Source of the DNA: Minisyncoccota bacterium
Lineage (GTDB): Bacteria; Patescibacteriota; Minisyncoccia; Phycocordibacterales; Phycocordibacteraceae
Length of the DNA stretch: 64,000 nt
Direction: 5' to 3'
Assembly (NCBI GenBank): GCA_041663025.1
Contig: JBAZRE010000002.1
Location: 27,703 to 91,702 of the forward strand
The notes below the pieces were generated by a model. The model was given only the letters and a program-made list of their open reading frames with translations, did no database searches and was not told the origin of the DNA. Shown piece by piece: positions 1,831 to 55,265 of this stretch; position 1 is the first letter of the stretch, and each line of letters begins with the position of its first letter. The translations under genes and the position numbers were made by a program.

Positions 1831-1831
1831 A

Positions 1832-16382: not shown

Positions 16383-17621
16383 ATGTTTAACAAACGAACC
16401 CTCCTTCGCTTCGCTTCGGCGGGGCGCACGTATCTCGACTGTGCATCGGGCATAAATGGCAATCCATCATCTCCTCACACTGAAGGACGTCGTGCAAAGC
16501 TGATACTAGAAGACGCTCGGGTGACCATCGCACGTCTTGTTGAGGTACAGCCAGACGACGTAATTTTCACCAGCGGCGCGACCGAGGCGAACGCGCTCGC
16601 GATTCTTGGCAATTTAGGACTTACGAAGTCCCCAATATCAGGGCCAGTAATGTCAGGACTTCGTAAGTCCAAAATTCATATGCTCTATCTGCCGAGCGCG
16701 CACGCTTCTGTTGTTGAGAATATGAAATTGCTCAGTGAACGCGGTGTCGAAATTGAGGCACTTCCGATCAGGGACGGATGTGTTGATTGTGAAAAGTTGA
16801 AAGAGTTGTTGCGGCCAGAAACAAAACTGGTCAGTATGGATGCCGTCTGTGGAGAGACGGGTGTTATTTGGAACACAAGGGAAGTTGCAGAAACATTGAA
16901 AAGAACGCACAACGGAGGAAGCAATTTCCTTGCTCCTTCGGGCCTCATAGGAATGAGTCAGCCAGTCGCAGAGGAAACCACTTCCTCCTCCGTGCTCCAC
17001 GTTGACGCAAGTCAAGCGCCGCTGACTGAAAAAATAACTCGTGCGCATTTCGGTGCTGACCTGCTCACGCTTGACGGATCAAAAGTTGGCGCACGCGGCA
17101 TCGGCACTTTGATTGCACATCGCACCATTCCGATTTCTCCACTTTACTTAGGTGGAGGCCAAGAGCGAGGGCTTCGCCCGGGAACTGAAGTACCCGAGCT
17201 CGCAGAGAAGTTCGCGGCCTGCCTCCGGCAGGCCGCGCTTAGCCGCGAAGCATTTCTTGCTGCTGCAAAGAGAGATAGGGCAGAACTCATCAAGAAAATC
17301 TCGAGCATCCAACATATGTGCATAAACGAAGGCAGTAATCAATCTCCAAATATTTTAAACATTTCTCTTATTGGCCGTGACACTGATTATCTGGTCGCAC
17401 TCCTTGATGAAGCGGGATTCGCCGTCTCTACACGAAGCGCATGCGAGACCGATTCGCAGACGGGTTCTCGTGCCGTCTTTGCCATCACGGGAGACCAAGA
17501 TCGTGCTCGCGCGACATTGCGTATTTCCTGGGGGCCGAGCACTCGCTCGCGCGAATTGGTCCATTTTGCCAAAGCACTCGTACAGGCAGTCGCGTTTATT
17601 GACAGCAGTGACCAACGGTAG
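16383..17621 (+). CDS. class-V aminotransferase / cysteine desulfurase-like (IscS/NifS family)
   Basis: FTSGATEANALAI and SMDAVCGETG, with a PLP-fold pattern. Start 3 nt after the previous stop. Confidence 0.65.
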   Translation: MFNKRTLLRFASAGRTYLDCASGINGNPSSPHTEGRRAKLILEDARVTIARLVEVQPDDVIFTSGATEANALAILGNLGLTKSPISGPVMSGLRKSKIHMLYLPSAHASVVENMKLLSERGVEIEALPIRDGCVDCEKLKELLRPETKLVSMDAVCGETGVIWNTREVAETLKRTHNGGSNFLAPSGLIGMSQPVAEETTSSSVLHVDASQAPLTEKITRAHFGADLLTLDGSKVGARGIGTLIAHRTIPISPLYLGGGQERGLRPGTEVPELAEKFAACLRQAALSREAFLAAAKRDRAELIKKISSIQHMCINEGSNQSPNILNISLIGRDTDYLVALLDEAGFAVSTRSACETDSQTGSRAVFAITGDQDRARATLRISWGPSTRSRELVHFAKALVQAVAFIDSSDQR

Positions 17622-23301: not shown

Positions 23302-24194
23302 TTTTCGTCGAGGAGCTTACGAAGCCACGCTTTTTGACGACGGGCATACTGCCAGAGTTTGGCGGAGAGTGTTTCGATAAGCAACTTAGGGGTCGGACCC
23401 CCAAGTGAGAGATCGGCTCCTGAGTTGAGAAATTCGCCAACGATTTTGTATTCAAGACCTAGTTCGTTGAGGCGAGTGTCGCCGACTTGCTCGCGCACAC
23501 GCCGGACTTCATCAATGAGTCCGCGCTCGAGTGCGTTCACGAGGCGTGCGTCAATCCGCGCGCGCAATTCTTCTTTCGGTAGGTCAATCACGATCCAATC
23601 TACAGACAACAAGGGTGCCCCTTGCAGCAAGGGGCACCCTTGTTTTGAATCGCGCGCGGGGACTGAGCCGAGAGAGTTGATGATCTCAAGAGCGCGGATA
23701 AGACGGCGGCGATTCTGCGGATCGAGCTCGGCGGCGCGGCGCGGATCCTGTTCTCTAATTCGCGCGAATAGTTCTTCAGTTGGGAGCTTTTCAAGTTCAT
23801 CACGCAATGCGGGATTTGCATCAGTGCCCATCGGGAGGCCGTGCAGAAGCGCGTCAAAGTAGAAGTGTGTTCCGCCCGCCAAAATGGGTAGTCTTCCACG
23901 TGCTGAAATATCTTTTATGAGCTTCGTGGCGTCCTCAACAAATTCTCCAGCGGAATACCTTTGGGCGGGCTCGCGAATATCAATCAGATGATGCGGTACT
24001 CCACGCATCTCTTCTTTGGTAATTTTCTCCGTGCCGATGTCTAAGCCGCGATATACTTGTCGCGAGTCAACCGAAATGATCTCTCCGTTTTGCTTCAAAG
24101 CTTCTTCGACCGCGCGCGCAGATTTACCCGAGGCAGTCGGCCCCGCGATGCATAAAATCTTTATTGGATGTGATAGTGACATTTTTGAATCCAT
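23298..24194 (-). CDS. miaA: tRNA dimethylallyltransferase
   Basis: P-loop GPTASGKS and DSRQVYRGLDIGTEK. The N-terminal extension in the ORF track overlaps tRNA-Leu, so the start was trimmed to MDSKMSL. Confidence 0.85.
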   Translation of the reverse strand: MDSKMSLSHPIKILCIAGPTASGKSARAVEEALKQNGEIISVDSRQVYRGLDIGTEKITKEEMRGVPHHLIDIREPAQRYSAGEFVEDATKLIKDISARGRLPILAGGTHFYFDALLHGLPMGTDANPALRDELEKLPTEELFARIREQDPRRAAELDPQNRRRLIRALEIINSLGSVPARDSKQGCPLLQGAPLLSVDWIVIDLPKEELRARIDARLVNALERGLIDEVRRVREQVGDTRLNELGLEYKIVGEFLNSGADLSLGGPTPKLLIETLSAKLWQYARRQKAWLRKLLDEN

Positions 24195-27005: not shown

Positions 27006-29495
27006 TTATTTTAGGTAATCGGCGGCTTCGGCGGGAGAGAGAGAATCAGGAGTGACAGAGTCTGGAAGGTAGATGCGACGGAGGCCTTTTTTTAAGAAGA
27101 GACCCTGTTTTGATTTATAGAGGACGAGTGATTTGCCGGTGCGCGGATGTTTGCCGATTTCTTTTACTATTTCAACACCCTTTGGAGGTTGCTTTGGTGT
27201 GGCGAGGAGAGTGAGTGCTTCATCAAGAGTGATGGTGTATGGATCGCCCACTTTGGGCTTAAGGGAGCGGAATTCGCCATCACTGCCGACATAGGGGCCG
27301 AAGCGTCCGGTCGAAGCGAACACCGCTTTACCGGTCGAAGGGTGCATCCCGAGCTCACGCGGGAGCGAGAGATACTTGAGTGCATCTGCAAGGGTCACGT
27401 CTGCAGGATTCGTACCCGCAGGGATACTCGCGCGCTTGGCGGCAACCTTTGGTCGCCCTCGGCCTTTCTTCGTTTTCGAGGGTTTTTTTGTTTCCGACTC
27501 CTCTTTCGTGCTTCGTGCTTCGTGTTTCGTGCTTTCATCTTGCAGTGCCATTTCCACATACGGTCCAAATCTTCCCGTCTTCACATAAATAGGTGCACCA
27601 GTCTCCGGGTGATTCCCAATTGGTTCATCACCGTGCATCTCAACACCTTCTTCATTTCGTGCACCGAGACAGTCGGGATAGCGTTTGCAGCTCATGAAGA
27701 CACCGCCGCGACCGAGCTTAAATTCCATCGGGCTCCCGCAGAGTGGGCAAGAGAATTCGCTCGAAGCATCGCCCAGCGACGTTGCCTTAGGCAATTTATC
27801 TTTTGCATGCACTGCTTTCTCAAATGGGCCATAGAAGGCCGAAAGGGTTTCGGTATAGCCGCGCTCACCACGCGCGATCTCGTCGAGTTCATTTTCCATC
27901 TCTGCAGTGAAGGTGTCGCTCACGTAGGTAGGGAAATGTTCTTCAAGCCAGCCAGAGACGACCATGCCAGTGGCGGTCGGCTTCAGTGCACGGGCGAGCT
28001 TCTCGACGTAACCACGATCTTGAATCGTCTTCATGATAGAAGCATAGGTCGATGGGCGGCCGATGCCACGCTTCTCTAATTCTTTAATCAACCCAGCTTC
28101 GGTATATCGATTGGGCGGCTCAGTTTGCTTTTCTTCTGATGAGAGCGAGAGGAGCGTGAGCGGGTCGCCCGTTGCGAGCTTCGGCAACTCGACATCTTCA
28201 CCGCGCGCTTTTGTATCAAGAGCCAGCCAACCAAGGAAGATGATGCGAGAACCGTTGGCGGTGAAGAGCGGAATACTTGCCTCGCCGGAGTGAGACGAAG
28301 GCGGGTCAGCCTTTGCAGAAATGTTCGTGCGCATCACGCGTGCGGGGGCCATCTGCGAAGCGAGAGAGCGAACACGGATGAGCTCATAGAGCTGTGTTTC
28401 GTCTGGCGTCGACCCCGCGCGTGCTTGAGAAGGGTCGGTGGGGCGGACTGCCTCATGTGCCTCTTGCGCATTTTTGCTTGTGGTTTTATAGACGCGCACC
28501 TGGAGATATTCTTTGCCAAATTGCTTTTCAACAACACTCGCCATCTTCGCAACCGCCTCCTTCGAGAGGTTTACCGAGTCGGTGCGCATATAGGTAATAT
28601 GGCCGGCTTCATAGAGCTTCTGCGCTGCACGCATCGTGCGCGAGGGCGCGAAGCCGAGACGGGTCGAAGCAGTCTGTTGGAGGGTCGAGGTGGTGAAGGG
28701 CGGACGAGGATTACGGTCCTCGGCTTTTTCAGTTACGCCGGCAACACTCCACGTAGCGCTTCTTCCATCTTTCACAATTCTTTCCGCCTCTTCTTTTGTT
28801 TTCGGCTGTTCGGTGCAAATGGTATTTAAGGTCGAACCTTGAGAATCGGATTTAAGGTTCGACCTTGTCTGAAAAAGCGCGTTAAGAACAAAATAGGTTA
28901 CGGGTATAAAAGCCTTAATCTCGCGCTCTCTCTCAGCGAGGATGCGCAGTGCCGGTGATTGCACACGACCAGCCGAGAGGCCGTAGCGTACTTTTTTCCA
29001 AATCAATCCCGAGAGATCGTAGCCGACAATACGGTCGAGCACACGCCGAGCCTCCTGCGCTTGTCGCAGATTCTGATCAATATCGCGCGGATGTGCGATA
29101 GCGTCCTTGATAGCGCTCTCGGTAATCTCGTGATACACGACTCTCTTGATTGGTTTCGTGCTTCGTTTTTCGTGCTTCGTTTTTCCCGAATCATCCTGGA
29201 TGATTTGGGCAATATGCCACGCGATCGCCTCGCCCTCACGGTCGGGGTCGGTTGCGAGATAGACCTCGTCTGCCTTTGCCGCTGCGCGCTTTATCTTCTC
29301 AATGATCTCGTGCTTATCAGCGGAGATAACGTAGCGCGGGATAAAGCCGCCCTCAATATCGACGGCGTCCTTGTTGCTCTTCGGCAAATCGCGCACATGA
29401 CCAACTGAAGCGAGAACGTCGTAGTTCTTGCCGAGATAGTGCCCTATAGTGCGCGCCTTGGTTGGCGATTCAACAATAAGTAATTTGGTGCTCAC
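27006..29495 (-). CDS. topA: DNA topoisomerase I
   Basis: TOPRIM (LLIVESPTKA), catalytic YMRTDS, zinc-ribbon repeats and a basic C-terminal tail. Contains the in-frame palindromic insert at 28828-28866. Confidence 0.95.
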   Translation of the reverse strand: MSTKLLIVESPTKARTIGHYLGKNYDVLASVGHVRDLPKSNKDAVDIEGGFIPRYVISADKHEIIEKIKRAAAKADEVYLATDPDREGEAIAWHIAQIIQDDSGKTKHEKRSTKPIKRVVYHEITESAIKDAIAHPRDIDQNLRQAQEARRVLDRIVGYDLSGLIWKKVRYGLSAGRVQSPALRILAEREREIKAFIPVTYFVLNALFQTRSNLKSDSQGSTLNTICTEQPKTKEEAERIVKDGRSATWSVAGVTEKAEDRNPRPPFTTSTLQQTASTRLGFAPSRTMRAAQKLYEAGHITYMRTDSVNLSKEAVAKMASVVEKQFGKEYLQVRVYKTTSKNAQEAHEAVRPTDPSQARAGSTPDETQLYELIRVRSLASQMAPARVMRTNISAKADPPSSHSGEASIPLFTANGSRIIFLGWLALDTKARGEDVELPKLATGDPLTLLSLSSEEKQTEPPNRYTEAGLIKELEKRGIGRPSTYASIMKTIQDRGYVEKLARALKPTATGMVVSGWLEEHFPTYVSDTFTAEMENELDEIARGERGYTETLSAFYGPFEKAVHAKDKLPKATSLGDASSEFSCPLCGSPMEFKLGRGGVFMSCKRYPDCLGARNEEGVEMHGDEPIGNHPETGAPIYVKTGRFGPYVEMALQDESTKHEARSTKEESETKKPSKTKKGRGRPKVAAKRASIPAGTNPADVTLADALKYLSLPRELGMHPSTGKAVFASTGRFGPYVGSDGEFRSLKPKVGDPYTITLDEALTLLATPKQPPKGVEIVKEIGKHPRTGKSLVLYKSKQGLFLKKGLRRIYLPDSVTPDSLSPAEAADYLK
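28828..28866. repeat. palindromic element family 2 (AAGGTCGAACCTT-gagaatcggattt-AAGGTTCGACCTT) inserted in-frame in topA
   Basis: Encodes the TopA segment RSNLKSDSQGSTL. Related copies at 33391-33430 (in ftsQ) and 34976-35015 (dus stop/intergenic). Confidence 0.8.
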
Positions 29496-29529
29496 GTTAT
29501 TAACTCATAACGCGTGTACCTATATATAG

Positions 29530-30300
29530 TCAAGCGACTTCGATACAAACGGGATGATGATCGGAGCCCATGCGGTCGGCAATAACTTCAATATGTTTGA
29601 TAGAGAATGAAGGGGAGACGAGGATATGATCAAGCTGGCTCTGCGCGAATGCGTGCGTGTTCTGCCCGCGGAGTGGATTGCTTAAGGCGTGCGCAGAAAA
29701 ACTCTCCTCAATGCGTGTCCTCTCACGATGATAGAAGAGCGCATCACTCAGAGATCCGCCCAGGAGCCAATTAAGAGGGGCTATAAAAGGCGATTCGATG
29801 ATGTTGAAATCACCACAGACAATGGTGGGTTGTGCAGAGTCCTTTTTCGTCATTGCCAGCTCAAATTCTTTCAGGCGCCACGTCGGCTGGGCGAGGATGA
29901 GATGGAGACATAATATGCGCAATAATTTTCCTCCCACACTAATGTCCGCGTATAAAGCACCGCGATTCTGGATCTTTGAGAACTTTTTATCCGGCATGAT
30001 GAGGACAAATAGCCGCGTGCGCAGAGGGAGATGATGCCAGTATTCTGGGAAGCGAATACCGCCCTGCGTCGTGATGGGGTGTCGCGAGAGAATGACGTTG
30101 AACATGGGAATTCTTGGTTCGGTAATCTTCTCGACGTCAATGCAATAGGCGATATGAAATGGGAGCGATTTTAATCGTGAGAGAAAATTTTCGGGCACCT
30201 CTTGCAAACAGAAAATATCAAAGTCAGCATCACGGATAAAAGAAAAAGCGCGATCGAGTTCGCGATTGCTGAACAGCATGTTCCAAGAATAAATAACCAT
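29530..30300 (-). CDS. endonuclease/exonuclease/phosphatase (EEP) family protein
   Basis: N-terminal CLQEV and C-terminal SDHHPV catalytic motifs. Confidence 0.7.
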   Translation of the reverse strand: MVIYSWNMLFSNRELDRAFSFIRDADFDIFCLQEVPENFLSRLKSLPFHIAYCIDVEKITEPRIPMFNVILSRHPITTQGGIRFPEYWHHLPLRTRLFVLIMPDKKFSKIQNRGALYADISVGGKLLRILCLHLILAQPTWRLKEFELAMTKKDSAQPTIVCGDFNIIESPFIAPLNWLLGGSLSDALFYHRERTRIEESFSAHALSNPLRGQNTHAFAQSQLDHILVSPSFSIKHIEVIADRMGSDHHPVCIEVA

Positions 30301-30326
30301 ATTTAAATGTTCAAATATTTAAAGAT

Positions 30327-31205
30327 TCACGTGCGGCGCCATGCACCGAATTCTTCACGCGCGAGGCCGCGCAGCTCAAGTGCGACGAGGGCAGTGAGAG
30401 TCTCACCAGCAGAAGCGAGGCTCCCGCGGAGAATCTCATCCCGCGTCTTCGGTTCGTCAATCATATTCCATACAACAAGCTCAGCATCTTCAAGGTCGCT
30501 CGGCGCTACGGTTGAGCTTGTTTCTCTGGGTGCGATATGAAGTGCTTCAAGAATGTGCAGCGGCTCACAGATGAGTGCTGCGCCGAGGCGGATGAAGAGG
30601 TGTGGGCCGAAGGCGTGTGGATCGCCGATGCGGTGGGGGATGCAGAGTAGGTCGCGGTTATACTCGCTCGCCAGCCGAGCCGTGATGAGCGTGCCCGACT
30701 TCGGTCCCGCTTCAATCATCAACACCGCATCAGAGAGCCCGACCATGAGCCGATTGCGTTCGGGGAAATAATAGATGCGCGAAGGTTGGTCAGGCGCGTA
30801 TTCAGAGAGGAAACCGCCGCCTGCTTTTAAAATTTCTTTTGCAAACGGGCGATTGCTTCTCGGATAGAGCACAGTATCGCCGAGACCGGAGCCGGGCACT
30901 ACGAGCGTGTGAAGACCGGCGGCCAAGGCCGCCTTGTGTGCGCAAGTGTCCATGCCGAGTGCGAGGCCGCTCACAATAGAGATAGGATACCCGGCGAGGC
31001 CGGCGATGAGTCGCTGGCATGCTTCTTCGCCATAGCGCGTCATCGCGCGGCTGCCGACGACCGTGAGCAACTTCGTTCCTTCTGGCGGCAAATTACCCCG
31101 CACCCACAGCCGCTTCGGCTGTTGCGGGATCTCCAAGAGTTGTCCCGGCCACTCACTCTTCTCTAATTCTCGTATCTCCATCTTTGCAGTATAACCGAGC
31201 CTCAA
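30327..31205 (-). CDS. dprA: DNA-processing protein DprA (Smf)
   Basis: Rossmann-like DprA core (VVGSR..SGLALGMD..HKAAL..GGFLSEY..ERNRL). Confidence 0.85.
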   Translation of the reverse strand: MRLGYTAKMEIRELEKSEWPGQLLEIPQQPKRLWVRGNLPPEGTKLLTVVGSRAMTRYGEEACQRLIAGLAGYPISIVSGLALGMDTCAHKAALAAGLHTLVVPGSGLGDTVLYPRSNRPFAKEILKAGGGFLSEYAPDQPSRIYYFPERNRLMVGLSDAVLMIEAGPKSGTLITARLASEYNRDLLCIPHRIGDPHAFGPHLFIRLGAALICEPLHILEALHIAPRETSSTVAPSDLEDAELVVWNMIDEPKTRDEILRGSLASAGETLTALVALELRGLAREEFGAWRRT

Positions 31206-31217
31206 AACATGCTATTA

Positions 31218-31238
31218 CCGTAAGGCGACGCCTTACGG
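31218..31238. repeat. palindromic element family 1, short variant (ccgtaaggcgacgccttacgg)
   Basis: Perfect palindrome followed by a T-run. Lies upstream of dprA and downstream of nothing on the + strand. Confidence 0.6.
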
Positions 31239-31329
31239 TTTTTCTCGTGTTATAATGTTAGTTGACAATCGGATATGTTTAGTATAAGTTGCAAGCAGAA
31301 GTTATTTCGAAAAAGAAAGGAGAACGCAC

Positions 31330-31656
31330 ATGCCCATAGAGCACCACGTTTTTCATGTCGACTGCAAAGGGAGGGGCTTTGACCTCAAAGAGGTTTTAGA
31401 GAAATCAATCAACGTCGAAGTATCTGTTCGCCGGAACGAAAACGGGAAGAGTATCTCTATGTCGGTCAAATGTCCTCATAATACTGGGGGTCATGGACAG
31501 AGGTGTAAGGCGTCGCATCCGGAGGTAGATAAAGTTGGGAAGGGTGTACTTTGTGCTTTTGCTGTTGATCTGCCCCATGCTTCGGATATGTACTCCCGCG
31601 TTCTGCATACCATGGAAGCCTTCCCAAGGATCTTGGATGCTCTCGGTTTTGGGTAA
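31330..31656 (+). CDS. hypothetical Cys/His-containing small protein
   Basis: Strong SD (AAAGGAGA) 8 nt before ATG. 108 aa. Carries Cys at DCKG, KCPH, QRCK and LCAF. Confidence 0.45.
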   Translation: MPIEHHVFHVDCKGRGFDLKEVLEKSINVEVSVRRNENGKSISMSVKCPHNTGGHGQRCKASHPEVDKVGKGVLCAFAVDLPHASDMYSRVLHTMEAFPRILDALGFG

Positions 31657-31675
31657 ACCCGCCCGCCGCAGAAAT

Positions 31676-31709
31676 CGCCCATTGGATTTCTCGGTGGGCG
31701 TTTCTGTTT
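31676..31709 (+). terminator. rho-independent terminator
   Basis: cgccca-ttggatttctcgg-tgggcg followed by tttctgttt. Confidence 0.5.
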
Positions 31710-31743
31710 GTATAGCCAAAACGGGTGATATACTGGAGCGCAT

Positions 31744-33012
31744 ATGTTGGACATACGCTTTATTCGGGAGAATGCCGATATTGTGAAGGCAGGGGCGGTG
31801 AAAAAACACATTGAGGTTGATATTGATCGCCTGCTCTCTGTTGATGACGAGCGCAAGAGATTGCGACAAGAGCTTGACGCGAAGCGCAATGAGCAGATTC
31901 GCCGCAGCAACGAGATGCCCCGCGTTAAGGACGAGGAGCGCGTGAAGCTGCTTGAGGCGATGAGGCATCTCAAAGATGGTATGACTGAGAGCGAAGAGAA
32001 GCTGAAGCAGGTCATGGATGAGTGGCAGAAGTTGATGCTCACCGTACCAAACATTCCTGACATGTCAGTGCCAGATGGCGAGAGCGATGCGGATAATAAG
32101 GAGGTGAAGAAATGGGGAACGCCTACAGAGTTTTCATTTAAGCCGAATAATCATGTTGACTTGATGACGGCGCTAGACATTGCTGACTTCGAACGTGGCT
32201 CAAAGGTGTCTGGATTCCGCGGCTACTTCTTGAAGGGCGATGGCGTGTTGCTCGCAAATGCGGTATGGCAACTGGCATTGAAGCATTTTTCTGCAAAAGG
32301 TCTCCTGCCGATGAGTGTGCCATCGCTTGTGCGCCGCGAATCGTTTATGGGCACGGGCTACTTGCCACAGGGCGAGGAGGACCTCTATAAGACACAAGAC
32401 GGCGAATATCTCGCCGGCACTGCCGAAGTTGCCACTATGGGTTATTACATGAACGAAGTGCTAGATGAGGGTAAGTTACCGGTACAATTCCTCTCATTCT
32501 CGCCCTGCTTCCGTCGCGAGGCAGGCGCACACGGAAAGGATGTCTGCGGTCTTATTCGCGTGCACGAATTCTTCAAATGGGAGCAGGTCATTCTCTGCAG
32601 GTCTGAACATGACGAATCAGTTCGCTTGCATGAATGGATTAATCGCAATACTGAAGAGTTTATCGAGCTCTTGAATATCCCCTATCACACCGTTACCAAT
32701 TGCGGCGGCGACCTCGGGCTTGGGCAGGTGAAGAAATATGATATTGAGCTTTGGGTCCCCGGCGAGGAGACGTATCGTGAGATAAGCTCGGCATCCTACT
32801 TCCACGACTTCCAGACGCGTCGGCTCAACATCCGCTATCGTGATGCAGAAGGGAACATGCGCTTCCCGCACTCCTTAAACTCCACTGCTATTCCGACACC
32901 GCGCATCCTGGTATCAATTGTTGAGAATTACCAACAAGAAGACGGTACGATTAAAGTGCCTGAGGCCCTGGTGCCCTATGTTGGGAAAACTATCATCGGC
33001 GGAACGCGGTAG
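31744..33012 (+). CDS. serS: seryl-tRNA synthetase
   Basis: N-terminal coiled-coil arm and class II motifs (FRRE, GLIRVHEF, CGGDLG..). 422 aa. Confidence 0.95.
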   Translation: MLDIRFIRENADIVKAGAVKKHIEVDIDRLLSVDDERKRLRQELDAKRNEQIRRSNEMPRVKDEERVKLLEAMRHLKDGMTESEEKLKQVMDEWQKLMLTVPNIPDMSVPDGESDADNKEVKKWGTPTEFSFKPNNHVDLMTALDIADFERGSKVSGFRGYFLKGDGVLLANAVWQLALKHFSAKGLLPMSVPSLVRRESFMGTGYLPQGEEDLYKTQDGEYLAGTAEVATMGYYMNEVLDEGKLPVQFLSFSPCFRREAGAHGKDVCGLIRVHEFFKWEQVILCRSEHDESVRLHEWINRNTEEFIELLNIPYHTVTNCGGDLGLGQVKKYDIELWVPGEETYREISSASYFHDFQTRRLNIRYRDAEGNMRFPHSLNSTAIPTPRILVSIVENYQQEDGTIKVPEALVPYVGKTIIGGTR

Positions 33013-33841
33013 TGACAGGTTGGCTGCGCGGCGGCGGCAGGGCCGCCGCCGCGGGCTCATCGCCTTTGGCGTTATTCTTTGCATCATATGTGGCGCGCTT
33101 ATTTGGGGACTTCAACAAAACACAGCGCGCATTGCGCGTGTGCAGATCTTTGGTGCAGATCAATCGTTGTCAGAGATTGCGCATACCGCGATGCAGGGGG
33201 AATATCTGGGAATCATTCCGCGTGACTCAATATTCTTTTTCCCAGAGGATCGTATTCGTGCAGACATTCTCGCAGCACACGCAGAGATTGCCGCAGTTTC
33301 AATATTCCGCAACGGCCTGACTGGTCTAACCATCAAAATAGATGATCGCATCCCCGTCGCACGGTGGTGTGGTCTCGCGCCTGACGCAACAAGGTTCGAC
33401 CTTAATGCAAGTTCCTCAAGGTCGAACCTTGTTACATCGAACTGCTACCTTTTTGATGTGAAGGGGTATATCTTCGCTGCTGCCGCAACAACCACACAAA
33501 CGATCAATTCCTTTGTTTTGTATGCGCCTCTTGCGAATGAGATTTTAGAACCACTACGTGCAACTATCGCGAATGCCGAAAAACTTCCCTCCGCTTTTGA
33601 CTTCGCACGCCAGCTCACAACCCTTGGTTCATCGGTCACGCGCATTATCCTACGCGATGGTGAGGTAGACACCTATCTCACAAGCGGCACGCGCATCACC
33701 TATCTTCTCGACGATGAACAGAATGCTTTTACCGCGCTGGTGTCTGCTCGTGCGAACATGAATCTCGCGGATGGCTCGGTTGAGTATGTTGATCTGCGTT
33801 TCGGCGGCAAGGTGTATCTGAAAAAGAAAGGTGATATTTAG
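32978..33841 (+). CDS. ftsQ: FtsQ/DivIB-like cell-division protein (POTRA domain)
   Basis: Basic N-terminus, single TM, POTRA-like VQIFGADQS..IKIDDRIPVARW. Start uncertain: ATG 32978 overlaps serS, and TTG 33017 is an alternative. Contains an in-frame palindromic insert. Confidence 0.55.
   Translation: MLGKLSSAERGSDRLAARRRQGRRRGLIAFGVILCIICGALIWGLQQNTARIARVQIFGADQSLSEIAHTAMQGEYLGIIPRDSIFFFPEDRIRADILAAHAEIAAVSIFRNGLTGLTIKIDDRIPVARWCGLAPDATRFDLNASSSRSNLVTSNCYLFDVKGYIFAAAATTTQTINSFVLYAPLANEILEPLRATIANAEKLPSAFDFARQLTTLGSSVTRIILRDGEVDTYLTSGTRITYLLDDEQNAFTALVSARANMNLADGSVEYVDLRFGGKVYLKKKGDI
33391..33430. repeat. palindromic element family 2 variant inserted in-frame in ftsQ-like gene
   Basis: aaggttcgacctt-aatgcaagttcctc-aaggtcgaacctt encodes TRFDLNASSSRSNLVT. 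Confidence 0.75.
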
Positions 33842-33883
33842 GGACATCGTAAGTCCCTCATGCAATTTGGACTTACGATGTCC
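33842..33883. terminator. palindrome family 4 hairpin (GGACATCGTAAGTCC..GGACTTACGATGTCC)
   Basis: 15-bp arms between the ftsQ-like gene and dus. A related copy lies inside dus at 34738-34779. Confidence 0.5.
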
Positions 33884-33891
33884 AAACATGG

Positions 33892-34983
33892 ATGGTATGG
33901 TACTTTGCATTTATGGATAACTTTTGGAATAACTTACCGAGGCCGTTTTTTGTCATGGCGCCCATGAAAGACGTCACTGACGTCGCCTTCCGTGCGCTTA
34001 TCGCCAAGCACTGCAAGCCCGACGTCTTCTGGACGGAGTTCGTCGCGGCAGACGGTCTTTATCACACCATCGAGAAGTACGAGAGACAAGGAGACTCCTC
34101 GCGCAAGGTGACTCCTCGCAGCGAGGTGTCTCCTTGTGGGAGCGCTAACGAGTTGAATCCGCTCCTGCGCGATCTCGCTTTTGACAAAGAAGCAGAACGG
34201 CCAATCGTCGCACAAATTTTTTCAAGCAAGCCAGAGATGATCGCGTATGCGACGAAGCTCGTTGCCGAACTCGGCTTTGATGGCGTTGATATCAACATGG
34301 GCTGCCCTGATCGCGCGATAGAGAAGCAGGGGTGCGGCTCGGCGATGATTAAGAATCCAGAACTCGCGCGCGAGATTATCCGCGCTGCAAAAAGTGCGTC
34401 CACACTGCCGGTATCAGTGAAGACGCGTGTTGGCTACAACAAAGAATCGCTCGACGAATGGTTGCCGGTCATTTTTGAAGAAGCGCCTGCGGCTATCACG
34501 ATTCACCTACGCACGCGCAAAGAGCTCTCACTAGTCCCGGCGAATTGGGAACTAATGAAAAAAGCAGTAGAGATTCGCAATCGCGTAAATCCCGATGTGC
34601 TGATCATAGGTAACGGTGATGTTGAGAGTGTTGAAGAAGGGAAGCATCTTGTCGCAGAGACCGGCTGCGATGGTATCATGATCGGCCGCGCGATGTTCGG
34701 CAACCCATGGATCTTCTCTGGTCTCTGGGATTCTCAGGGACATCGGATGTCCTCTTCTGAAATTGAACATCCGATGTCCAACCATGGGCTCCCCGAGAAA
34801 TTAGATGCTCTAATTGAGCTCGCCCACAACTTTGAAAAAATCTCCCCGCCCAAAAACTTCTCTATTCTTAAAAAACATATCAAAGCATTCGTCACCGGCT
34901 TCGCTGGAGCTGCCGACCTCCGCGCCAAATTAATGGAAGCCACCTCCGCCGCCGACCTTGAGCGTATCGCAAAACAAGGTTAA
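33892..34983 (+). CDS. dus: tRNA-dihydrouridine synthase
   Basis: TIM-barrel Dus motifs (MAPMKDVTD, DGVDINMGCP, KTRVG). Carries two in-frame palindromic inserts, and its TAA stop lies in a family-2 element. Confidence 0.85.
   Translation: MVWYFAFMDNFWNNLPRPFFVMAPMKDVTDVAFRALIAKHCKPDVFWTEFVAADGLYHTIEKYERQGDSSRKVTPRSEVSPCGSANELNPLLRDLAFDKEAERPIVAQIFSSKPEMIAYATKLVAELGFDGVDINMGCPDRAIEKQGCGSAMIKNPELAREIIRAAKSASTLPVSVKTRVGYNKESLDEWLPVIFEEAPAAITIHLRTRKELSLVPANWELMKKAVEIRNRVNPDVLIIGNGDVESVEEGKHLVAETGCDGIMIGRAMFGNPWIFSGLWDSQGHRMSSSEIEHPMSNHGLPEKLDALIELAHNFEKISPPKNFSILKKHIKAFVTGFAGAADLRAKLMEATSAADLERIAKQG
34087..34136. repeat. palindromic element family 1 variant inserted in-frame in dus
   Basis: ggagactcctcgcgcaaggtgactcctcgcagcgaggtgtctcc encodes GDSSRKVTPRSEVSPCG. 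Confidence 0.75.
34738..34779. repeat. palindromic element family 4 inserted in-frame in dus
   Basis: ggacatcggatgtcc-tcttctgaaatt-gaacatccgatgtcc encodes GHRMSSSEIEHPMS. Confidence 0.7.
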
Positions 34984-35015
34984 ACCTTGAGGATTCGGAT
35001 TTAAGGTTTAACCTT
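34976..35015. repeat. palindromic element family 2 variant spanning dus stop codon
   Basis: aaggttaaacctt-gaggattcggattt-aaggtttaacctt. A TCGAAC>TTAAAC variant creates the dus TAA stop. Confidence 0.75.
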
Positions 35016-35036
35016 GTTTTGCGTTATACTGCACCC

Positions 35037-36092
35037 ATGGCGCATCAGAGTTTATACCGGATACATAGACCGACAACATTTGCGGACGTGATAGGGCAAG
35101 AACATGTAACGAAGCCATTGGAGGAGGCAGTGAAGGCGAAGAAGATCGGCCATGCCTACCTCTTCGCCGGTACGCGAGGGTTGGGGAAGACTAGCGTAGC
35201 GCGCATCTTCGCTAGCGCGATCGGCTGCGGCGAGAATGATCTCTATGAAGTTGATGCCGCTAGTAATAATAGTGTTGAGGATATTCGAGCGCTCACCGAG
35301 GGCGTCTACACTTTACCTTTCCAATCTCCTTATAAAGTTTATATTCTCGACGAAGTGCACATGCTCTCAAAGAGCGCATGGAATGCTTTTCTTAAAACGC
35401 TTGAAGAGCCGCCAGCTCACGCAGTTTTTATTCTTGCCACTACTGAATTGGAGAAAGTCCCAGAGACCGTGCAGTCGCGCTGTCAGGTATTTGAATTTAA
35501 GAAGCCGACACGCGCCATCCTCGCTAAGATGACTGCGGCTGTGGCGAAAAAAGAGGGCTACACGCTCGCGCCTGATGCCGCCGACTTGATCTCGATGCTG
35601 GCCGATGGTTCATTCCGCGATGCTCTCTCGGTCTTGCAGAAAGTGCTGGGTTCATCAGCAGACAAAAAGTTATCGCGAGCAGAAGTAGAGCAGGCGACCG
35701 GCGCGCCGCGCCAAGAACAAGTGCATGCGCTCATAAACGCGCTCGCCGCGGGCGAGCGCGGGAAGGCTCTTGAAGCGATAGAGCAGGCAGCAAAAGCCGA
35801 TGCTGATATGAAGCTCTTCTTGCAGCTCGTGCTTGAAGCGCTTCGTGCAACCTTGCTCATCAAATTTGCACCCGACCTCCGCGCCTCACTCCAGAGCGAG
35901 CTCGGCGCGGACGAATTTGCCGCGCTTGAAAAATTCGCCCTATCAAATGTAGGACGTCCGACGTCCTACATTACGCATCAGACACTCCTGGCGTTTTTGA
36001 TCGCCGCCGATCGCATCCGCTATGCACCCATTCCCGTGCTGCCACTCGAATTGGCGATCTTGGAACTCTTTCCCGAAAACGCAACTAAGTGA
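35037..36092 (+). CDS. dnaX: DNA polymerase III subunit gamma/tau (short form)
   Basis: Clamp-loader AAA+ signature (GTRGLGKTS, DEVHMLS, SRC motif TVQSRCQVFEF). Contains an in-frame family-3 palindrome at 35947-35971 (encodes NVGRPTSYIT). Confidence 0.8.
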   Translation: MAHQSLYRIHRPTTFADVIGQEHVTKPLEEAVKAKKIGHAYLFAGTRGLGKTSVARIFASAIGCGENDLYEVDAASNNSVEDIRALTEGVYTLPFQSPYKVYILDEVHMLSKSAWNAFLKTLEEPPAHAVFILATTELEKVPETVQSRCQVFEFKKPTRAILAKMTAAVAKKEGYTLAPDAADLISMLADGSFRDALSVLQKVLGSSADKKLSRAEVEQATGAPRQEQVHALINALAAGERGKALEAIEQAAKADADMKLFLQLVLEALRATLLIKFAPDLRASLQSELGADEFAALEKFALSNVGRPTSYITHQTLLAFLIAADRIRYAPIPVLPLELAILELFPENATK

Positions 36093-37660
36093 TAATGTAT
36101 CTCTATTGGGAGATCGTCTAACGGTAGGACAGCGCCCTTTGAAGGCGTGAATCGGGGTTCGATTCCCTGTCTCCCAGCCCGAATAAAACTTGGGTCAGAT
36201 TCTGAAAAATTTTCCCGCGCGGCGCAGAGCGCCGCGTATGGTGGAGAAGGGATTTCTCGGACTTCTTTGTTATGCAAGTGCAGGTTCGAGCCGAAGAGTT
36301 TTTGGAGGGGGGATTTTTTGGAGGGGGTATCTTCTGATTTTGCTATTTCGTCCAGCATTGACGCCTCTTTTACCCATTCTCGCATCGGTTCGAGCCAGTG
36401 TCCGGCGTTCGCTTCAAGACGAGCCGTTTGCTCCTCGACCGACTTCTTCTCCAACACAAGAACGCGACGGCGCGCGAGGTAGTCCTCGCGCTCGATGTCT
36501 TGGGCGATATAGAGGTCGGTCAGGCGGTCGAGCTTGCGGGAAATGTCGTGGATTTTGTCCCGCAATTCTTGAACGAACGCCGCGGTCTGGAGAGACGAGG
36601 TATTTTCGTCTTCTGCTATCAACCTTTCAAATTCTGTCTGCCACGCCGAAGGCATCGCGTAGTTTCGGATTAACTCATCCAGTTGAGGTATTAGCGCTTC
36701 TTCTCGAACATACGGCTGGGAGCATGCACCTTTCTTTTTCGTACAGCGATAATAAACATAATGATGAGCGTTGCCGTTTTGCTGGTGCTTCGTCTTTTCT
36801 TCAGCCGTAATACCCATACCGCACTCGCCACAACGCAAAAGCCCACAGAGATCCTTTGGCTCGTTCTGGGCTTTCATCGGATGACCGCGTTCGACAATGA
36901 CTCGTTGCACTTTGTCGAATAGTCGCTTTTCAACGATGGGCGTATGTCGCCCTTCGCGTATTTCGCCGCCGTATGTAAAGAGGCCAACATAGAATGCATT
37001 GGTGAGAATGAACCTCACTCGGTCTTTGTGAAAATGGAGACCGCCAAAACTTCGCACTCCATTTTCATACATAAAATTAGAAATATCTTCAAGCCGCGAA
37101 TTACCTTTTGCATATAACTCGAACGCGGAGCGAATCACTTTTGACTTCTTGCGGTCAATAACAATAGTCTTCGCGCGTACATCATTCAAATAGCCGACAG
37201 GCGCAGTACTTGGGAATTCGCCACGCTTCACTTTGGCGCGCAAACCTCGCTTCACATTGGAACTCAAATCGCGAATAAACTGATTCGCCATGCCGAACTC
37301 TACCGACATCATCAACACATTGTCGCTCGGATAATGACTTCGGTCGTGCGTGCGAATATGCTGGATAATATTTTCTTGCAACAGCCAGCTTATCTGCCCG
37401 CCGTCCACCGGATTACGCGACAAGCGATCGAGCTTCCAACACACGATGCCCTGTGCCTCGCCCTTATGTATCCGCTTCAGCATTTCATTGAACACCGGAC
37501 GGCCGGGCATTTTCGCGCTCCGCTTCTCCACGAACTCCGCGACGACTTCTAACCTCTCGCTTTTGGCGAGCGCTCGTAATTCGGACAACTGCGCCTCAAT
37601 GGACAAAACTTGTTTGTCCTCAACATCGGTAGATTTTCGTGCGTAGAGAAAATAGCGCAT
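36020..37660 (-). CDS. large serine recombinase (resolvase catalytic domain + recombinase domain + zinc ribbon + coiled coil)
   Basis: N-terminal YARKSTDVEDKQVLSIEAQ with catalytic Ser, GIVCWKLDRLSRN, Cys cluster CGECG..C..C, and a long coiled-coil. The last roughly 100 codons read through repeat X and antisense tRNA-Gln, so the functional stop is uncertain. Confidence 0.75.
   Translation of the reverse strand: MRYFLYARKSTDVEDKQVLSIEAQLSELRALAKSERLEVVAEFVEKRSAKMPGRPVFNEMLKRIHKGEAQGIVCWKLDRLSRNPVDGGQISWLLQENIIQHIRTHDRSHYPSDNVLMMSVEFGMANQFIRDLSSNVKRGLRAKVKRGEFPSTAPVGYLNDVRAKTIVIDRKKSKVIRSAFELYAKGNSRLEDISNFMYENGVRSFGGLHFHKDRVRFILTNAFYVGLFTYGGEIREGRHTPIVEKRLFDKVQRVIVERGHPMKAQNEPKDLCGLLRCGECGMGITAEEKTKHQQNGNAHHYVYYRCTKKKGACSQPYVREEALIPQLDELIRNYAMPSAWQTEFERLIAEDENTSSLQTAAFVQELRDKIHDISRKLDRLTDLYIAQDIEREDYLARRRVLVLEKKSVEEQTARLEANAGHWLEPMREWVKEASMLDEIAKSEDTPSKKSPLQKLFGSNLHLHNKEVREIPSPPYAALCAARENFSESDPSFIRAGRQGIEPRFTPSKGAVLPLDDLPIEIHYHLVAFSGKSSKIANSSGSTGMGA
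36107..36177 (+). tRNA. tRNA-Gln (anticodon TTG)
   Basis: Acceptor TGGGAGA/TCTCCCA, D-arm GTCT/GGAC, anticodon stem GCGCC/GGCGT with loop CTTTGAA, T-loop GGTTCGATTCC. The 3' end abuts island repeat X. Confidence 0.8.
36178..36311. repeat. island repeat X (attL arm); identical in inverse orientation to 39303-39388, diverged further out
   Basis: 36178-36262 is the exact reverse complement of 39303-39388. Weaker similarity continues to about 36311 versus 39245. Confidence 0.8.
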
Positions 37661-37674
37661 AGGAGTATTATACA

Positions 37675-39159
37675 ATGACCATGAACATAGGACGGAACGA
37701 AAAATGCCCATGTGGAAGTGGTTTGAAATATAAAAAATGCCATATGGGAAAAGAACAAGATATGGGTAAAAATACCAAAAGATATCGTCATTTTTCGGGC
37801 GTTGTTTTCGATGGCTCTGGAGCCAATCTTTCGCTCTACGAAAAAAATATGACTTTGGTCGAAGCGATCATCGATATCTTTGGATTTACGGAAGGGCGAG
37901 ATTTAAGTGATATCAAGAGAACAGTCTCTCGCGAGCATGTAGCGGAATTGCATAAATTGGTGGCATGGCTTTGGCCACCTGATACGGACGTGACGAAATT
38001 TCTACCAGCCCCATCCAATAATTTGAGAGCACTCTATATGGGAAATATGCGGCCTCAAACAATTTTGAGAAGTGTCGGGAGATATTCGTTGTACTGCGAC
38101 GAAATACTGGTAATGGATCCTTTCATGAATCCATGGTTCATAGCACCTGACTACAATCCCATAATGCACCCAGAGGAGTACGTCTCTAATACATGGAAAT
38201 GGGTGTTATTTATTATCCAACTTGCACCATGGATATACGATAAACAGGTATTGTTGCTTCCAAACCCTCTCGACTTCGACTCGTCGTTGCGGAAAGAAAT
38301 GTGGGCTAGTGCGGAGAAACGATTAAATCCACAAAAGAACGATTTGCTGAAATTCCTCGAACAAGACGATTCCATGGGAGAAACTGCAAAAGAGGAATTT
38401 AAACGAACATGGATGTCTATTCCTGAATATGCACAACGAAAGAAAATAAAAGAGTTTGACAATAAAATGACGGAAGAAGAGGTCGATGGAATGATTAAGT
38501 ATATAGACAAAATGAAGGAAGAAGATCCTTACTTCGTGACAAATCCAAACGAAAAAGGAGGATTTGGTATCAGCACCCATACAATGGGCGGGAACTTGGA
38601 GCAGGGTTTATATATTTCTCAGCTAACCGGAGCTCATTTATACACAGATTTTGAATTTAGGTGGAGAGAGATTTTATCAGCTCAAACAGATACATCAGAA
38701 AAAAGCCCATGGAGTCCCATTGCGTATGGCTTCCAAAATCTCGATTTCAAATTTTTGGACGGCACAGATTTGAAATTCGTCCATAAAATAAAAGCAGACG
38801 GAAGATTGTCTAATTTGCGGAATTTCCTCCGAAAGACATGGAAAGAAGTATCAGCAGACGAGACACCAAATTATGAGAAGGCAAACAAACTTGCTTTGGA
38901 ATTTGCAGACGAACTGAAGGAACAGTATTCAAAAGCAGAGTCTGAATGGGAAGGTATAGACACAGATTTAACAAAATGGCTCTTGAGTAGAAGTGGGCTC
39001 GGGACCCTCGTTGCTACTGGAGGTGTAAATTGGACGATCCCCGCACTCGGCTTTGCAATGGAAGGCGTAAATCAGCTACTTACAGCACGGCATGAACGAA
39101 AGAATTTCAGGAAAAATGTACCACTTTCGGTCTTTGTTGATTTAAAAAAGAGAAAGTAA
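37675..39159 (+). CDS. SEC-C-motif protein of unknown function (494 aa)
   Basis: N-terminal CPCGSGLKYKKCH is a SEC-C zinc-binding motif. The rest has no recognised family. AT-rich gene, divergent from the recombinase with overlapping starts. Confidence 0.55.
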   Translation: MTMNIGRNEKCPCGSGLKYKKCHMGKEQDMGKNTKRYRHFSGVVFDGSGANLSLYEKNMTLVEAIIDIFGFTEGRDLSDIKRTVSREHVAELHKLVAWLWPPDTDVTKFLPAPSNNLRALYMGNMRPQTILRSVGRYSLYCDEILVMDPFMNPWFIAPDYNPIMHPEEYVSNTWKWVLFIIQLAPWIYDKQVLLLPNPLDFDSSLRKEMWASAEKRLNPQKNDLLKFLEQDDSMGETAKEEFKRTWMSIPEYAQRKKIKEFDNKMTEEEVDGMIKYIDKMKEEDPYFVTNPNEKGGFGISTHTMGGNLEQGLYISQLTGAHLYTDFEFRWREILSAQTDTSEKSPWSPIAYGFQNLDFKFLDGTDLKFVHKIKADGRLSNLRNFLRKTWKEVSADETPNYEKANKLALEFADELKEQYSKAESEWEGIDTDLTKWLLSRSGLGTLVATGGVNWTIPALGFAMEGVNQLLTARHERKNFRKNVPLSVFVDLKKRK

Positions 39160-54214: not shown

Positions 54215-54997
54215 ATGATCATCATGAGGATCAGAGACGTGCGGCTTATCATGGGCATGCCCATAGAAATTGAGATTGTAGATGACAGCGCGAGAGACAC
54301 ACTCGAATCCGCCTTCGCATATCTCGTGTCTGTCGATGAACGTTTCAGTACGTATAAAGAAGACAGTGAAATTTCGCGTATCAATCGCAGTGAGATTGAA
54401 TCAGATGTCGTGAGTGTCGAGATGCGGGAAGTTTTTGCCATCGCTGAGAAGACAAGAATAGAAACAAACGGATACTTTAATATCAAAAAACCTGATAGCA
54501 CTATTGATCCTTCAGGTATTGTGAAGGGATGGGCGATACGCAATGCTGCCGCGCTTATCCGCGAAGCGGGATATGAGCATTATTTTGTGAATGCCGGTGG
54601 CGACATTGCGACGAGTGGTAAAAATATCGATGGAGGTGAGTGGAGTGTTGGTATCCGCAATCCCTTCAACAGTAATGAAATTGTGAAAGTGGTCTATCCA
54701 CACGGGAAGGGTATCGCAACCTCTGGTTCATATATCCGGGGGAATCATATCTACAATCCCCACAATACAAAAGAAGAGTTGCATGACATCGTGAGCATCA
54801 CGGTCATAGGCCCTGATGTTCTTGAAGCCGATCGTTTTGCGACTGCAGCGTTTGCAATGGGAAAGGGCGGCATCACTTTTATTGCACAACTATCGGGTTT
54901 TGAAGGCTACGCCATAAATGTGGACGGTATTGCTACGATGACGAGCGGCTTCGCCGAATATACAAATCCGCAAGGTGACACCTTACGGCAACCGTAA
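54215..54997 (+). CDS. apbE: FAD:protein FMN transferase (ApbE family)
   Basis: ApbE core motifs (SEISRIN, GIVKGWA, VNAGGDI, GIATSGSY). The last 9 codons and the TAA stop are encoded by a family-1 palindromic element. Confidence 0.8.
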   Translation: MIIMRIRDVRLIMGMPIEIEIVDDSARDTLESAFAYLVSVDERFSTYKEDSEISRINRSEIESDVVSVEMREVFAIAEKTRIETNGYFNIKKPDSTIDPSGIVKGWAIRNAAALIREAGYEHYFVNAGGDIATSGKNIDGGEWSVGIRNPFNSNEIVKVVYPHGKGIATSGSYIRGNHIYNPHNTKEELHDIVSITVIGPDVLEADRFATAAFAMGKGGITFIAQLSGFEGYAINVDGIATMTSGFAEYTNPQGDTLRQP

Positions 54998-55011
54998 GGT
55001 GTCACCTTGCG
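54967..55011. repeat. two tandem inverted family-1 short palindromes (ccgcaaggtgacaccttacgg caa ccgtaaggtgtcaccttgcgg)
   Basis: The first copy encodes the apbE C-terminus PQGDTLRQP. The TAA of ccgTAAgg is the stop codon. Confidence 0.75.
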
Positions 55012-55265
55012 GAGTGCGCAGGGAGCCAGTTCATCACTACCTTGCGGTGTTGATCGAGCGACCATGAGTCACTGTGCTTGAAAAGCGTTGCATGTCCCTT
55101 TCTAAACTCTCGTAAGAGCGGTAATGAAGCACGGGGAAATTCAAAAGGGAGACCCTCGTTATAGGACTTTAAAAAGGCGGGAAGTGAGAGGAGTTTCTCG
55201 CTCCGTTCTCGATCGAGGTCAGGTGATCTCATTACCCCTGATAATACCACGAACTTTATACTAAA

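Follow-up and report, generated by a model that had tools for sequence, protein, structure and literature searches.

Introduction

Repetitive extragenic palindromes (REPs), their inverted dimers (REPINs) and the REP-associated tyrosine transposases (RAYTs) are well described in E. coli, Pseudomonas and Stenotrophomonas (PMC3116915, PMC3337134, PMC3479197, PMC6006769). REPs also occur in frame within known proteins, often those of replication or repair genes, in Opitutus terrae, Thauera and Rickettsia conorii (RPE-4/RPE-6; Di Nocera et al. 2013, PMC3733652), while the Rickettsia palindromic element (RPE) RPE-1, its relatives and the protein-coding palindromic repeats of Wolbachia go back to Ogata et al., as cited in PMC3733652. 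Here we describe short palindromic hairpins, several of them in frame within housekeeping genes, in a 64,000-nucleotide stretch of DNA from a Minisyncoccota bacterium (contig JBAZRE010000002.1, positions 27,703 to 91,702), referred to as the window and numbered from its first letter. The host is an ultra-small groundwater bacterium of the Candidate Phyla Radiation (CPR), and the nearest genome relatives of the window are Paceibacterota/Kaiserbacteria metagenome-assembled genomes. CPR (Patescibacteria) genomes are among the smallest and most gene-dense, and are usually pictured as streamlined and repeat-poor.

Five segments, one each in topA, an FtsQ-like gene and dnaX and two in dus, are in-frame hairpin insertions. 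They are probably non-autonomous mobile hairpins of the REP/REPIN type, cognate families of RayT-like Y1 (HUH) transposases in related Patescibacteria. Literature searches returned no paper joining REPs, RAYTs or in-frame palindromes with CPR bacteria, and CPR bacteria are not mentioned in the two RAYT surveys checked; REP/REPIN-type elements are apparently undescribed for this group. An earlier reading of the window made from its letters (the sequence-only reading) had suspected as much, and the searches agree with it, in-frame REPs having been published for other phyla (PMC3733652).

That reading had likened the insertions to RPEs. The likeness holds as an analogy: both are in-frame palindromes in housekeeping genes of a small, host-dependent genome, and, as with RPE-1 and the Wolbachia repeats, the sites are surface-exposed and patchy among orthologs. 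It does not extend to membership: RPE-1-type elements span ~100-150 bp, against 27-56 nt here, the host is a Patescibacteria genome, and no similarity in sequence is apparent, though no RPE sequence was set directly against the elements. RPE-1 also has no established transposase partner, whereas a RayT-like partner is indicated here. A second analogy is offered by the mobile GC-rich palindromic 'byp' elements that Lang et al. (in 2014) reportedly found in yeast mitochondrial genes, where they are said to be skipped by translational bypassing. Both are short mobile hairpins inserted in essential protein-coding genes; byps, however, break the frame and the ribosome skips them, whereas every intragenic copy described here keeps an open frame, which makes plain read-through translation the simpler prediction. 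Translational bypass was set aside.

Results

Palindromic elements in the window

The window contains 29 perfect hairpins (stem of at least 10, loop of at most 30), against 1.75 +/- 1.2 (maximum 5) expected from 100 dinucleotide-preserving shuffles, and 16 hairpins with stems of at least 12, against 0.12 expected. Ten of the 29 lie between 28.8 and 36.0 kb. The elements of this region, assigned to families F1 to F4, are as follows.

28828..28866, minus strand: F2 REPIN dimer in topA, AAGGTCGAACCTT, 13-nt spacer, AAGGTTCGACCTT; in frame, encodes RSNLKSDSQGSTL, aa 211-223
31217..31239: F1-like monomer between the divergent dprA (minus strand) and ORF 31330-31656 (plus strand), ACCGTAAGGCG a CGCCTTACGGT
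33388..33433, plus strand: F2 REPIN dimer in the FtsQ-like ORF, AACAAGGTTCGACCTT, 14 nt, AAGGTCGAACCTTGTT; in frame, encodes TRFDLNASSSRSNLVT, aa 158-173
33842..33883: F4 (GGAC-core) REPIN dimer in the spacer before dus, GGACATCGTAAGTCC, 12 nt, GGACTTACGATGTCC
34086..34137, plus strand: F1-type composite hairpin at dus site 1; in frame, encodes ..QGDSSRKVTPRSEVSPCG.., aa 67-83 of the ORF
34738..34779, plus strand: F4 REPIN dimer at dus site 2, GGACATCGGATGT, 16 nt, ACATCCGATGTCC; in frame, encodes GHRMSSSEIEHPMS, aa 283-296
34968..35023: F2 REPIN dimer between dus and dnaX; TAA/TTA variant, stem of 21 bp
35946..35972, plus strand: F3 monomer in dnaX, AAT GTAG GACGTC C GACGTC CTAC ATT; in frame, encodes NVGRPTSYI(T), aa 310-319

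All palindromes that the sequence-only reading had placed in these genes were found, and all five in-gene copies lie in frame within long open reading frames (ORFs) and encode extra peptide segments, as it had claimed. Predicted protein stretches spanning inserted segments read ..FQTRSNLKSDSQGSTLNTIC.. and ..SQGHRMSSSEIEHPMSNHG...

Elements are 27-56 nt long, the in-frame copies adding 8-17 aa. The basic unit is a near-perfect palindrome of 13-27 nt, occurring singly or paired with an inverted second unit across a spacer of 10-24 nt. The latter, REPIN-like architecture is seen at 28828, 33388, 33842, 34738, 34968, 16617 and 54967. The arms of most dimers are near-palindromes in their own right (AAGGT-NNN-ACCTT, GGAC-N7-GTCC), making the dimers 'palindromes of palindromes'. 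The four families proposed earlier do recur, with two amendments: the dus site 1 element falls in family 1 (AAGGTGAC..CCTCGC), and families 3 and 4 share the GGAC-N7-GTCC core. Single-stranded DNA (ssDNA) folding of seven of the region's elements (all but 31217-31239) was in each case better than 200/200 shuffles, with z scores of -5 to -11: topA -6.2 (-12.9 kcal/mol), FtsQ-like -8.3, 33842-33883 -9.1 (-16.2 kcal/mol), dus site 1 -6.3, dus site 2 -5.1, 34968-35023 -10.8 (-23 kcal/mol) and dnaX -6.5.

The two intergenic dimers abut stop codons. That at 33842-33883 begins immediately past the FtsQ-like stop, and the central triplet of the left unit at 34968-35023 is the dus stop codon itself (34981-34983). 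The spacer of the latter copy (GAGGATTCGGATTT) resembles that of the topA copy (GAGAATCGGATTT), indicating that the two are copies of one element.

Pfam confirms topA (27006-29495, minus strand), dus (33892-34983) and dnaX (35019-36092), as well as the neighboring exo/endonuclease-phosphatase gene, dprA and serS. The FtsQ-like label of the ORF between serS and dus (32918-33841) is putative, its basis being a sub-threshold FtsQ_DivIB_C match (E = 0.026) and conserved synteny. The topA-exo-dprA / serS-ftsQ-like-dus-dnaX block keeps its synteny in ~70 of 80 fetched loci. An Rfam scan of the window returned only tRNAs, and thus no known structured-RNA family over the hairpins.

In-frame insertions and their position in the proteins

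From the fetched loci (loci bear L numbers, here and below), 60-80 syntenic orthologs were taken and aligned. All five in-frame segments are missing from most of them, are patchy among relatives and sit at sites of hypervariable length across the clade; they are therefore lineage-specific insertions, and the ortholog comparison proposed with the sequence-only reading bears it out.

The topA element is present in L003, L004, L010 and L017, shortened in L005, and absent from most others, among them L001, the sister of the window in a concatenated-protein tree. Other genomes have different, unrelated palindromes in this loop, at least three in all (L002, L075, L080); that of L002 is a 53-nt 'palindrome of palindromes', CACTTGGGGGTCCAACCCCCAAGTG CAG CACTTGGGGGTTGGACCCCCAAGTCG. 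The FtsQ-like element recurs in L007, L010 and L022, while L004 carries a covarying variant (GAAGTCTGACTTC..GAAGTCAGACTTC), L003 a monomer, and most orthologs lack it. At dus site 1, related copies occur in L001 and L015 (a simple hairpin), ~70 orthologs have none, and other genomes carry unrelated insertions in this loop. The inserted segment in the window reads GDSSRKVTPRSEVSPCG, with its left arm partly duplicated, and in L001 a 30-nt unit, ATGCAAGGTGACACCTCTCTCCGCGAGGAG, is present twice in tandem. This tandem duplication of the F1 arm indicates that hairpins also grow by local duplication.

Family turnover is seen at dus site 2, which is occupied by the GGACATC family in the window, L001 and L002, by the GGACTT family (that of the window's aminotransferase gene) in L003, L015 and L026, and by AAGGT dimers in L004, L005 and L007. 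L003 and L004 are very close relatives, yet carry different families at this site. The spacer of the window's intergenic copy at 34968-35023 matches those of the L004 and L007 dus copies, L007 also sharing its variant. The dnaX hairpin is found in the window, L001, L002, L017 and L024, most orthologs lacking it. Among these five hairpins compensatory changes occur at 4/13 pairs, and 92% of alignment cells are paired, a share that drops to 25-51% on sliding the partner. Arms have likewise changed together in the L002 dus and L004 ftsQ-like copies.

An AlphaFold2 model of Dus built from 70 homologs (mean predicted local distance difference test score, pLDDT, 71) places both inserts in non-regular coil between structured elements, with pLDDT <50. 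The site 1 insert is predicted to lie early in the TIM barrel and the site 2 insert in the linker from the last barrel strand to the C-terminal helical domain. When TopA is aligned to PDB entry 6pcm, its insert falls in the unaligned stretch that separates two conserved blocks, and the weak FtsQ C-terminal-domain match starts just past the FtsQ-like insert. The inserts thus appear, by model and alignment, to occupy variable, low-confidence loops or linkers, in line with the surface-loop location anticipated by the sequence-only reading. A different kind of insertion is present in the topA Toprim domain, where a 14-nt direct tandem repeat (29159-29186; GTGCTTCGTTTTTC x2) coincides with an 11-residue insertion (..DDSGKTKHEKRST..) relative to 6pcm.

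The AAGGT family in groundwater metagenomes

Metagenome contigs were scanned for AAGGTYSRACCTT-N10-16-AAGGTYSRACCTT, yielding at least 120 loci; 120 of these, and one viral-contig locus from a separate scan, were analyzed (121 in total), and the counts given here are for the copies and loci listed. AAGGT-YSR-ACCTT dimers number at least 134 in at least 121 loci from groundwater metagenomes. The central triplets of the two arms are exactly complementary in 122/134 copies (1/8 expected by chance), all triplet variants are seen in both orders, and the spacers are almost all distinct. Ninety of the 134 copies lie inside ORFs of at least 100 aa, some proteins having two or three. The 82 host ORFs match at least 124 Pfam families, among them TsaD, EF-G/translation GTPases, TopA, aminotransferase V, GatB, LigA (NAD-ligase), transketolase, PheT and Dus. 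Although most copies are intragenic, density per base is several-fold greater in intergenic DNA.

Intragenic arms are read in all three frames (51/25/14), and it is the DNA, not the peptide, that is conserved. Core lengths leave a remainder of 1 on division by 3 in 43 copies, 0 in 36 and 2 in 11; as many are not multiples of 3, the true insert boundaries must vary. No target-site duplications were found at the 121 copies, direct repeats of at least 3 nt adjoining only 3/121, and no conserved target was found past a weak C at -1 and G at +1 (~55%). Stem extensions of at least 5 bp beyond the core occur in 17% of copies, some subfamily-specific and some single-copy. The elements recur across independent NCBI, JGI and ENA assemblies, and an assembly artefact was set aside.

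The hairpins form multi-gene, multi-genome families with covarying arms and without target-site duplications. The motifs are repeated in the window, in related genomes, in metagenomes and in many unrelated genes, and distant orthologs did not encode the same peptides from non-palindromic DNA, either of which findings, if reversed, would have spoken against the sequence-only reading.

The sole viral-contig match (L201:11324-11405, IMGVR_UViG_3300039239_000044) consists of three overlapping tandem AAGGT-N3-ACCTT units in a 269-aa ORF. With one such locus only, a phage-borne phenomenon is ruled out.

Association with RayT-like transposases

E. coli RayT, IS200 and IS608 TnpA sequences were used as tblastn queries. 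Their weak matches (E 0.015-1.2) led to ORFs assigned to Y1_Tnp (PF01797) above the Pfam threshold, with REP_Tyr_transpos as the top NCBIfam match. The RayT-like proteins are ~220 aa long and belong to a family of at least 3013 proteins at E <= 1e-10, whose source names are 'REP element-mobilizing transposase RayT' or 'transposase [Patescibacteria / Moranbacteria / Parcubacteria]'. Y1_Tnp genes occur in 8/120 of the element-selected metagenome loci (9 copies in ~0.77 Mb, two of them in L182), compared with 1/80 of the dus-selected loci (1.26 Mb).

RayT-like genes are physically associated with the hairpins in related contigs. The same hairpin stands on both sides of the Y1_Tnp gene, an arrangement known as a REPtron, in L173 (..GACGAAGGTTgAACCTTCGTC.. 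on both sides), L136 (TCTATCGAGGTTcAACCTCGATAGA), L089 (CACGAGGCGaCGCCTCGTG), L202, L205 and L207, the last three fetched independently and labeled at source as Moranbacteria, Parcubacteria group and Patescibacteria group, respectively. L182 has two Y1_Tnp paralogs (L182a, L182b), each with its own hairpin family. The hairpin of L207 and L182a, TTCCGAAGGT(cga/tcg)ACCTTCGGAA, contains the exact F2 unit of the window's topA and ftsQ-like genes. In L107 the hairpin of the Y1 gene recurs, with one mismatch, as a dimer in a 455-aa ORF 6 kb away on the same contig.

The RayT-like genes also hold an in-frame copy of their own flanking hairpin, at a fixed position ~12 codons upstream of the HUH motif:

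L173: 875-914
L182: 4036-4087 and 2570-2613
L107: 13408-13445
L136: 2370-2396
L202: 1706-1726
L205: 1695-1719
L207: 1699-1721

This internal segment is invariant in length across 120 homologs and follows the pattern [KR][AV]Q[PL]SEF..L[NS]L, and the tetrapeptides on either side of it (KVQP/RLNL, KAQL/KLSL) are reverse-complement codon partners. We know of no described REPtron with such an internal copy.

A second Y1_Tnp subfamily, of the L027 type (L027:6507-7181, L208, L210, L211, L212), shows 67-85% identity and comprises at least 7938 proteins, hosted by Kaiserbacteria, Paceibacterota, Nomurabacteria and Falkowbacteria. It may represent a domesticated enzyme.

Other elements and features of the window

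The same families recur elsewhere in the window, at 578, 1380, 1832, 6208, 16617, 47066 and 54967, and AAGGT-N3-ACCTT units number 10 in the 64 kb. Copies and related hairpins outside the central region include the following.

578-618, 1380-1441, 1832-1852: further F1 copies
6208-6232: second F3-family copy, just past the PIF1-helicase stop
16617..16670, plus strand: GGACTT-family REPIN dimer, GGACTTACGAAGTCC, 24 nt, GGACTTCGTAAGTCC, in a class-V aminotransferase (cysteine-desulfurase-like) gene, 16383-17621; in frame, encodes GLTKS..GLRKS
23608..23644, minus strand: perfect 18-bp hairpin, AACAAGGGTGCCCCTTGC a GCAAGGGGCACCCTTGTT, in miaA (IPP transferase ORF 23298-24326); candidate insertion
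54967..55013: F1 dimer, TCCGCAAGGTGACACCTTACGG caa CCGTAAGGTGTCACCTTGCGGA, over the 3' end of apbE (54215-54997)

Six family elements and the miaA hairpin are intragenic. As for classical REPs, many copies lie at gene 3' ends (33842, 34968, 54967, 578, 6208). The CCGTAAGG core of the 31217-31239 hairpin is common to the copies at 578, 1380, 1832 and 54967, and the core of the miaA hairpin, CAAGGGGCACCC, is found again in the hairpin at 15326-15368, 3' of a SET-domain gene. Flanked by A/T runs, the hairpins at 15326, 21309 and 60967 look like bidirectional terminators.

F1 (CCGTAAGG) hairpins cluster at 1376-1441 and 1832-1891, inside and beside ORF 1422-2069 (minus strand); this ORF is without a Pfam match and is possibly not a genuine gene. 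tRNA-Leu (24216-24300) and the longest miaA ORF overlap in the 5' part of the latter, whose Pfam match runs from residue 90, so the true miaA start must be further downstream. Beyond dnaX, a large serine recombinase ORF (36020-37711, minus strand; Resolvase, Recombinase and Zn-ribbon domains) adjoins tRNA-Gln (36106-36180, plus strand), which its tail overlaps, possibly marking one edge of an integrated element.

Discussion

The elements resemble REP/REPIN-RAYT systems in several respects. In both, the units are short, GC-rich palindromes, single or in spaced inverted dimers, with several families per genome, many copies at gene 3' ends and no target-site duplications; in related contigs Y1_Tnp genes lie between their own hairpins, as in REPtrons, and paralogs have different cognate hairpins (L182a versus L182b). 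The differences lie in the CPR/Patescibacteria host, in the symmetry of the CPR units, which are near-perfect where REPs are imperfect palindromes, in the location of the copies, about two-thirds of the surveyed AAGGT copies listed being in ORFs where REPs are predominantly extragenic, and in the transposase genes, which hold their own hairpin in frame. The intragenic GTAG- and CGTC-tagged REPs (PMC3733652) are also close, as they too are in-frame monomers and dimers, encoding ~10-30 residues, with frequent replication, repair and tRNA-related hosts and some genes hit twice; intragenic copies there are, however, a minority of a mainly extragenic population. The CPR case fits this kind of element, and differs in host phylum, short symmetric units, intragenic share and the turnover of families at hot-spot loops. 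To our knowledge, such turnover at one loop among close relatives has not been described for intragenic REPs.

A mechanism can be proposed in which the hairpins are mobilized by a RayT-like enzyme, presumably one encoded in this genome. By homology with TnpA(REP) and the IS200/IS605 enzymes, the transposase would recognize the folded hairpin in ssDNA, and would cut and rejoin DNA without target duplication; the observed absence of target-site duplications fits such single-strand 'peel and paste' chemistry. Most insertions would land in genes because the genomes are ~90% coding. Persisting copies keep the frame, contain no in-frame stop and lie in permissive loops or linkers, where they would be translated, as part of the host proteins, into 8-17 additional residues. 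Arms remain complementary while spacers and flanks drift, and permissive loops are refilled, or swapped between hairpin families.

Several observations weigh against this explanation. We know of no REPIN of such a kind for which transposition has yet been demonstrated. The dimer units, at 13-15 nt, are shorter and more perfectly symmetric than classical REPs. The RayT-like proteins score 43-58 bits, below the NCBIfam equivalog cut-off of 80. In classical REPs the 5' guide tetranucleotide (GTAG or CGTC) is conserved. Here GTAG and CGTC are present in the dnaX and 6208 copies, and ..CGTCA in the flanking hairpins of L173, L107 and L202, but AAGGT dimers, the hairpins of L205 and L207 and the window's other families lack the guide, which is not general. 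No Y1 transposase gene was found in the 64-kb window. The transposase link is confined to the AAGGT family and to some families that the window lacks, with no partner found for the window's GGAC, GTAG and CCGTAAGG families. No hairpins flank the Kaiserbacteria-type Y1 subfamily in the 5 loci examined, which makes the link to the window's own lineage indirect. Finally, the distribution of filled and empty alleles is discordant with the species tree (at topA, the window, L003 and L004 carry the filled allele and L001 the empty one), and either recombinational allele exchange or repeated gain and loss is needed to account for it.

It is conceivable, though unlikely, that no dedicated transposase is involved and that intrastrand template switching (quasi-palindrome correction) on loop-coding DNA makes and keeps the hairpins. 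Such a process would account for arms that are perfectly complementary despite spacer drift, for orthologous copies in which both arms change together, for stem extensions that are in some cases single-copy, for the nested palindromes and the tandem partial arm duplication at dus site 1 (window, L001), and for the missing target-site duplications. It leaves unexplained how one and the same 13-nt arm comes to recur at over 130 places, spread across many genomes and 82 unrelated host ORFs, why the copies in topA, between dus and dnaX, and in the dus genes of L004 and L007 have spacers in common, and why arms are identical to those of hairpins flanking RayT-like genes. Template switching could well act in addition, as the process keeping arms matched.

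Similarly improbable is that the hairpins are selected cis-acting elements of the host (terminators, mRNA stabilizers, supercoiling or protein-binding sites, translation-pausing structures) whose spread reflects function. Classical REPs do hold such roles (PMC3733652), arm complementarity is conserved, and the copies at gene 3' ends and stop codons, along with the terminator-like hairpins, would suit this explanation. The patchy presence in essential genes of close relatives, and the different families found at one site, nevertheless disfavor a required function at the intragenic sites; intragenic copies also have no consistent position relative to gene features, their hosts span at least 124 Pfam families, and Rfam offers no known structured-RNA family for them.

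Motifs akin to DNA-uptake sequences, spread by preferential uptake and recombination in naturally competent, nucleotide-scavenging bacteria, are a very unlikely source. In other bacteria, uptake sequences are indeed found within coding DNA and in inverted pairs, the window includes dprA, and the tree-discordant filled alleles have flanking residues in common between clades (for instance ..EHGL.. at dus site 2), which suggests recombinational allele exchange. However, at least four unrelated families are found together in one 64-kb window, the density of any single motif is low (ten AAGGT-N3-ACCTT units), the elements are insertions of 24-50 nt rather than motif-creating substitutions, and an association with RayT-like genes would not be predicted. 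Classical miniature transposable elements with inverted repeats (MITEs), deletion derivatives of DDE-transposase insertion sequences mobilized through terminal inverted repeats, share the short, non-coding, multi-copy inverted-repeat architecture but can be dismissed almost entirely, as the 121 copies listed lack target-site duplications, 27-56 nt is far below MITE size, the inverted repeats are the whole element and not its ends, and the only associated transposase found is of the Y1/HUH type; in this sense the 'MITE-like' label of the sequence-only reading is unsupported.

Mobile hairpins of the REP/REPIN type would extend REPIN-RayT systems to a new superphylum. Several such families would be present in CPR bacteria, with most surviving copies within essential proteins (TopA, DnaX, Dus, TsaD, EF-G, LigA, GatB). 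It is tempting, if more speculative, to suggest that in the REPIN-RayT systems of Patescibacteria the hairpin inside the transposase gene is a 'master copy' co-evolving with the enzyme, and that the dispersed copies may be a major continuing source of loop insertions in CPR housekeeping proteins, with the loops as hot spots of family turnover over short evolutionary times. The finding offers a concrete account of how some of the so far unexplained insertions, which hinder the alignment and modeling of CPR proteins, arise. It also bears on annotation, since gene callers and hidden Markov models split or shorten hairpin-bearing genes: the Dus Pfam match begins only at residue 98, and the aminotransferase match is broken into two. 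The hairpins could be of use as markers that distinguish strains on a fine scale, and the insertions would constitute a natural experiment in how much random peptide insertion essential enzymes tolerate.

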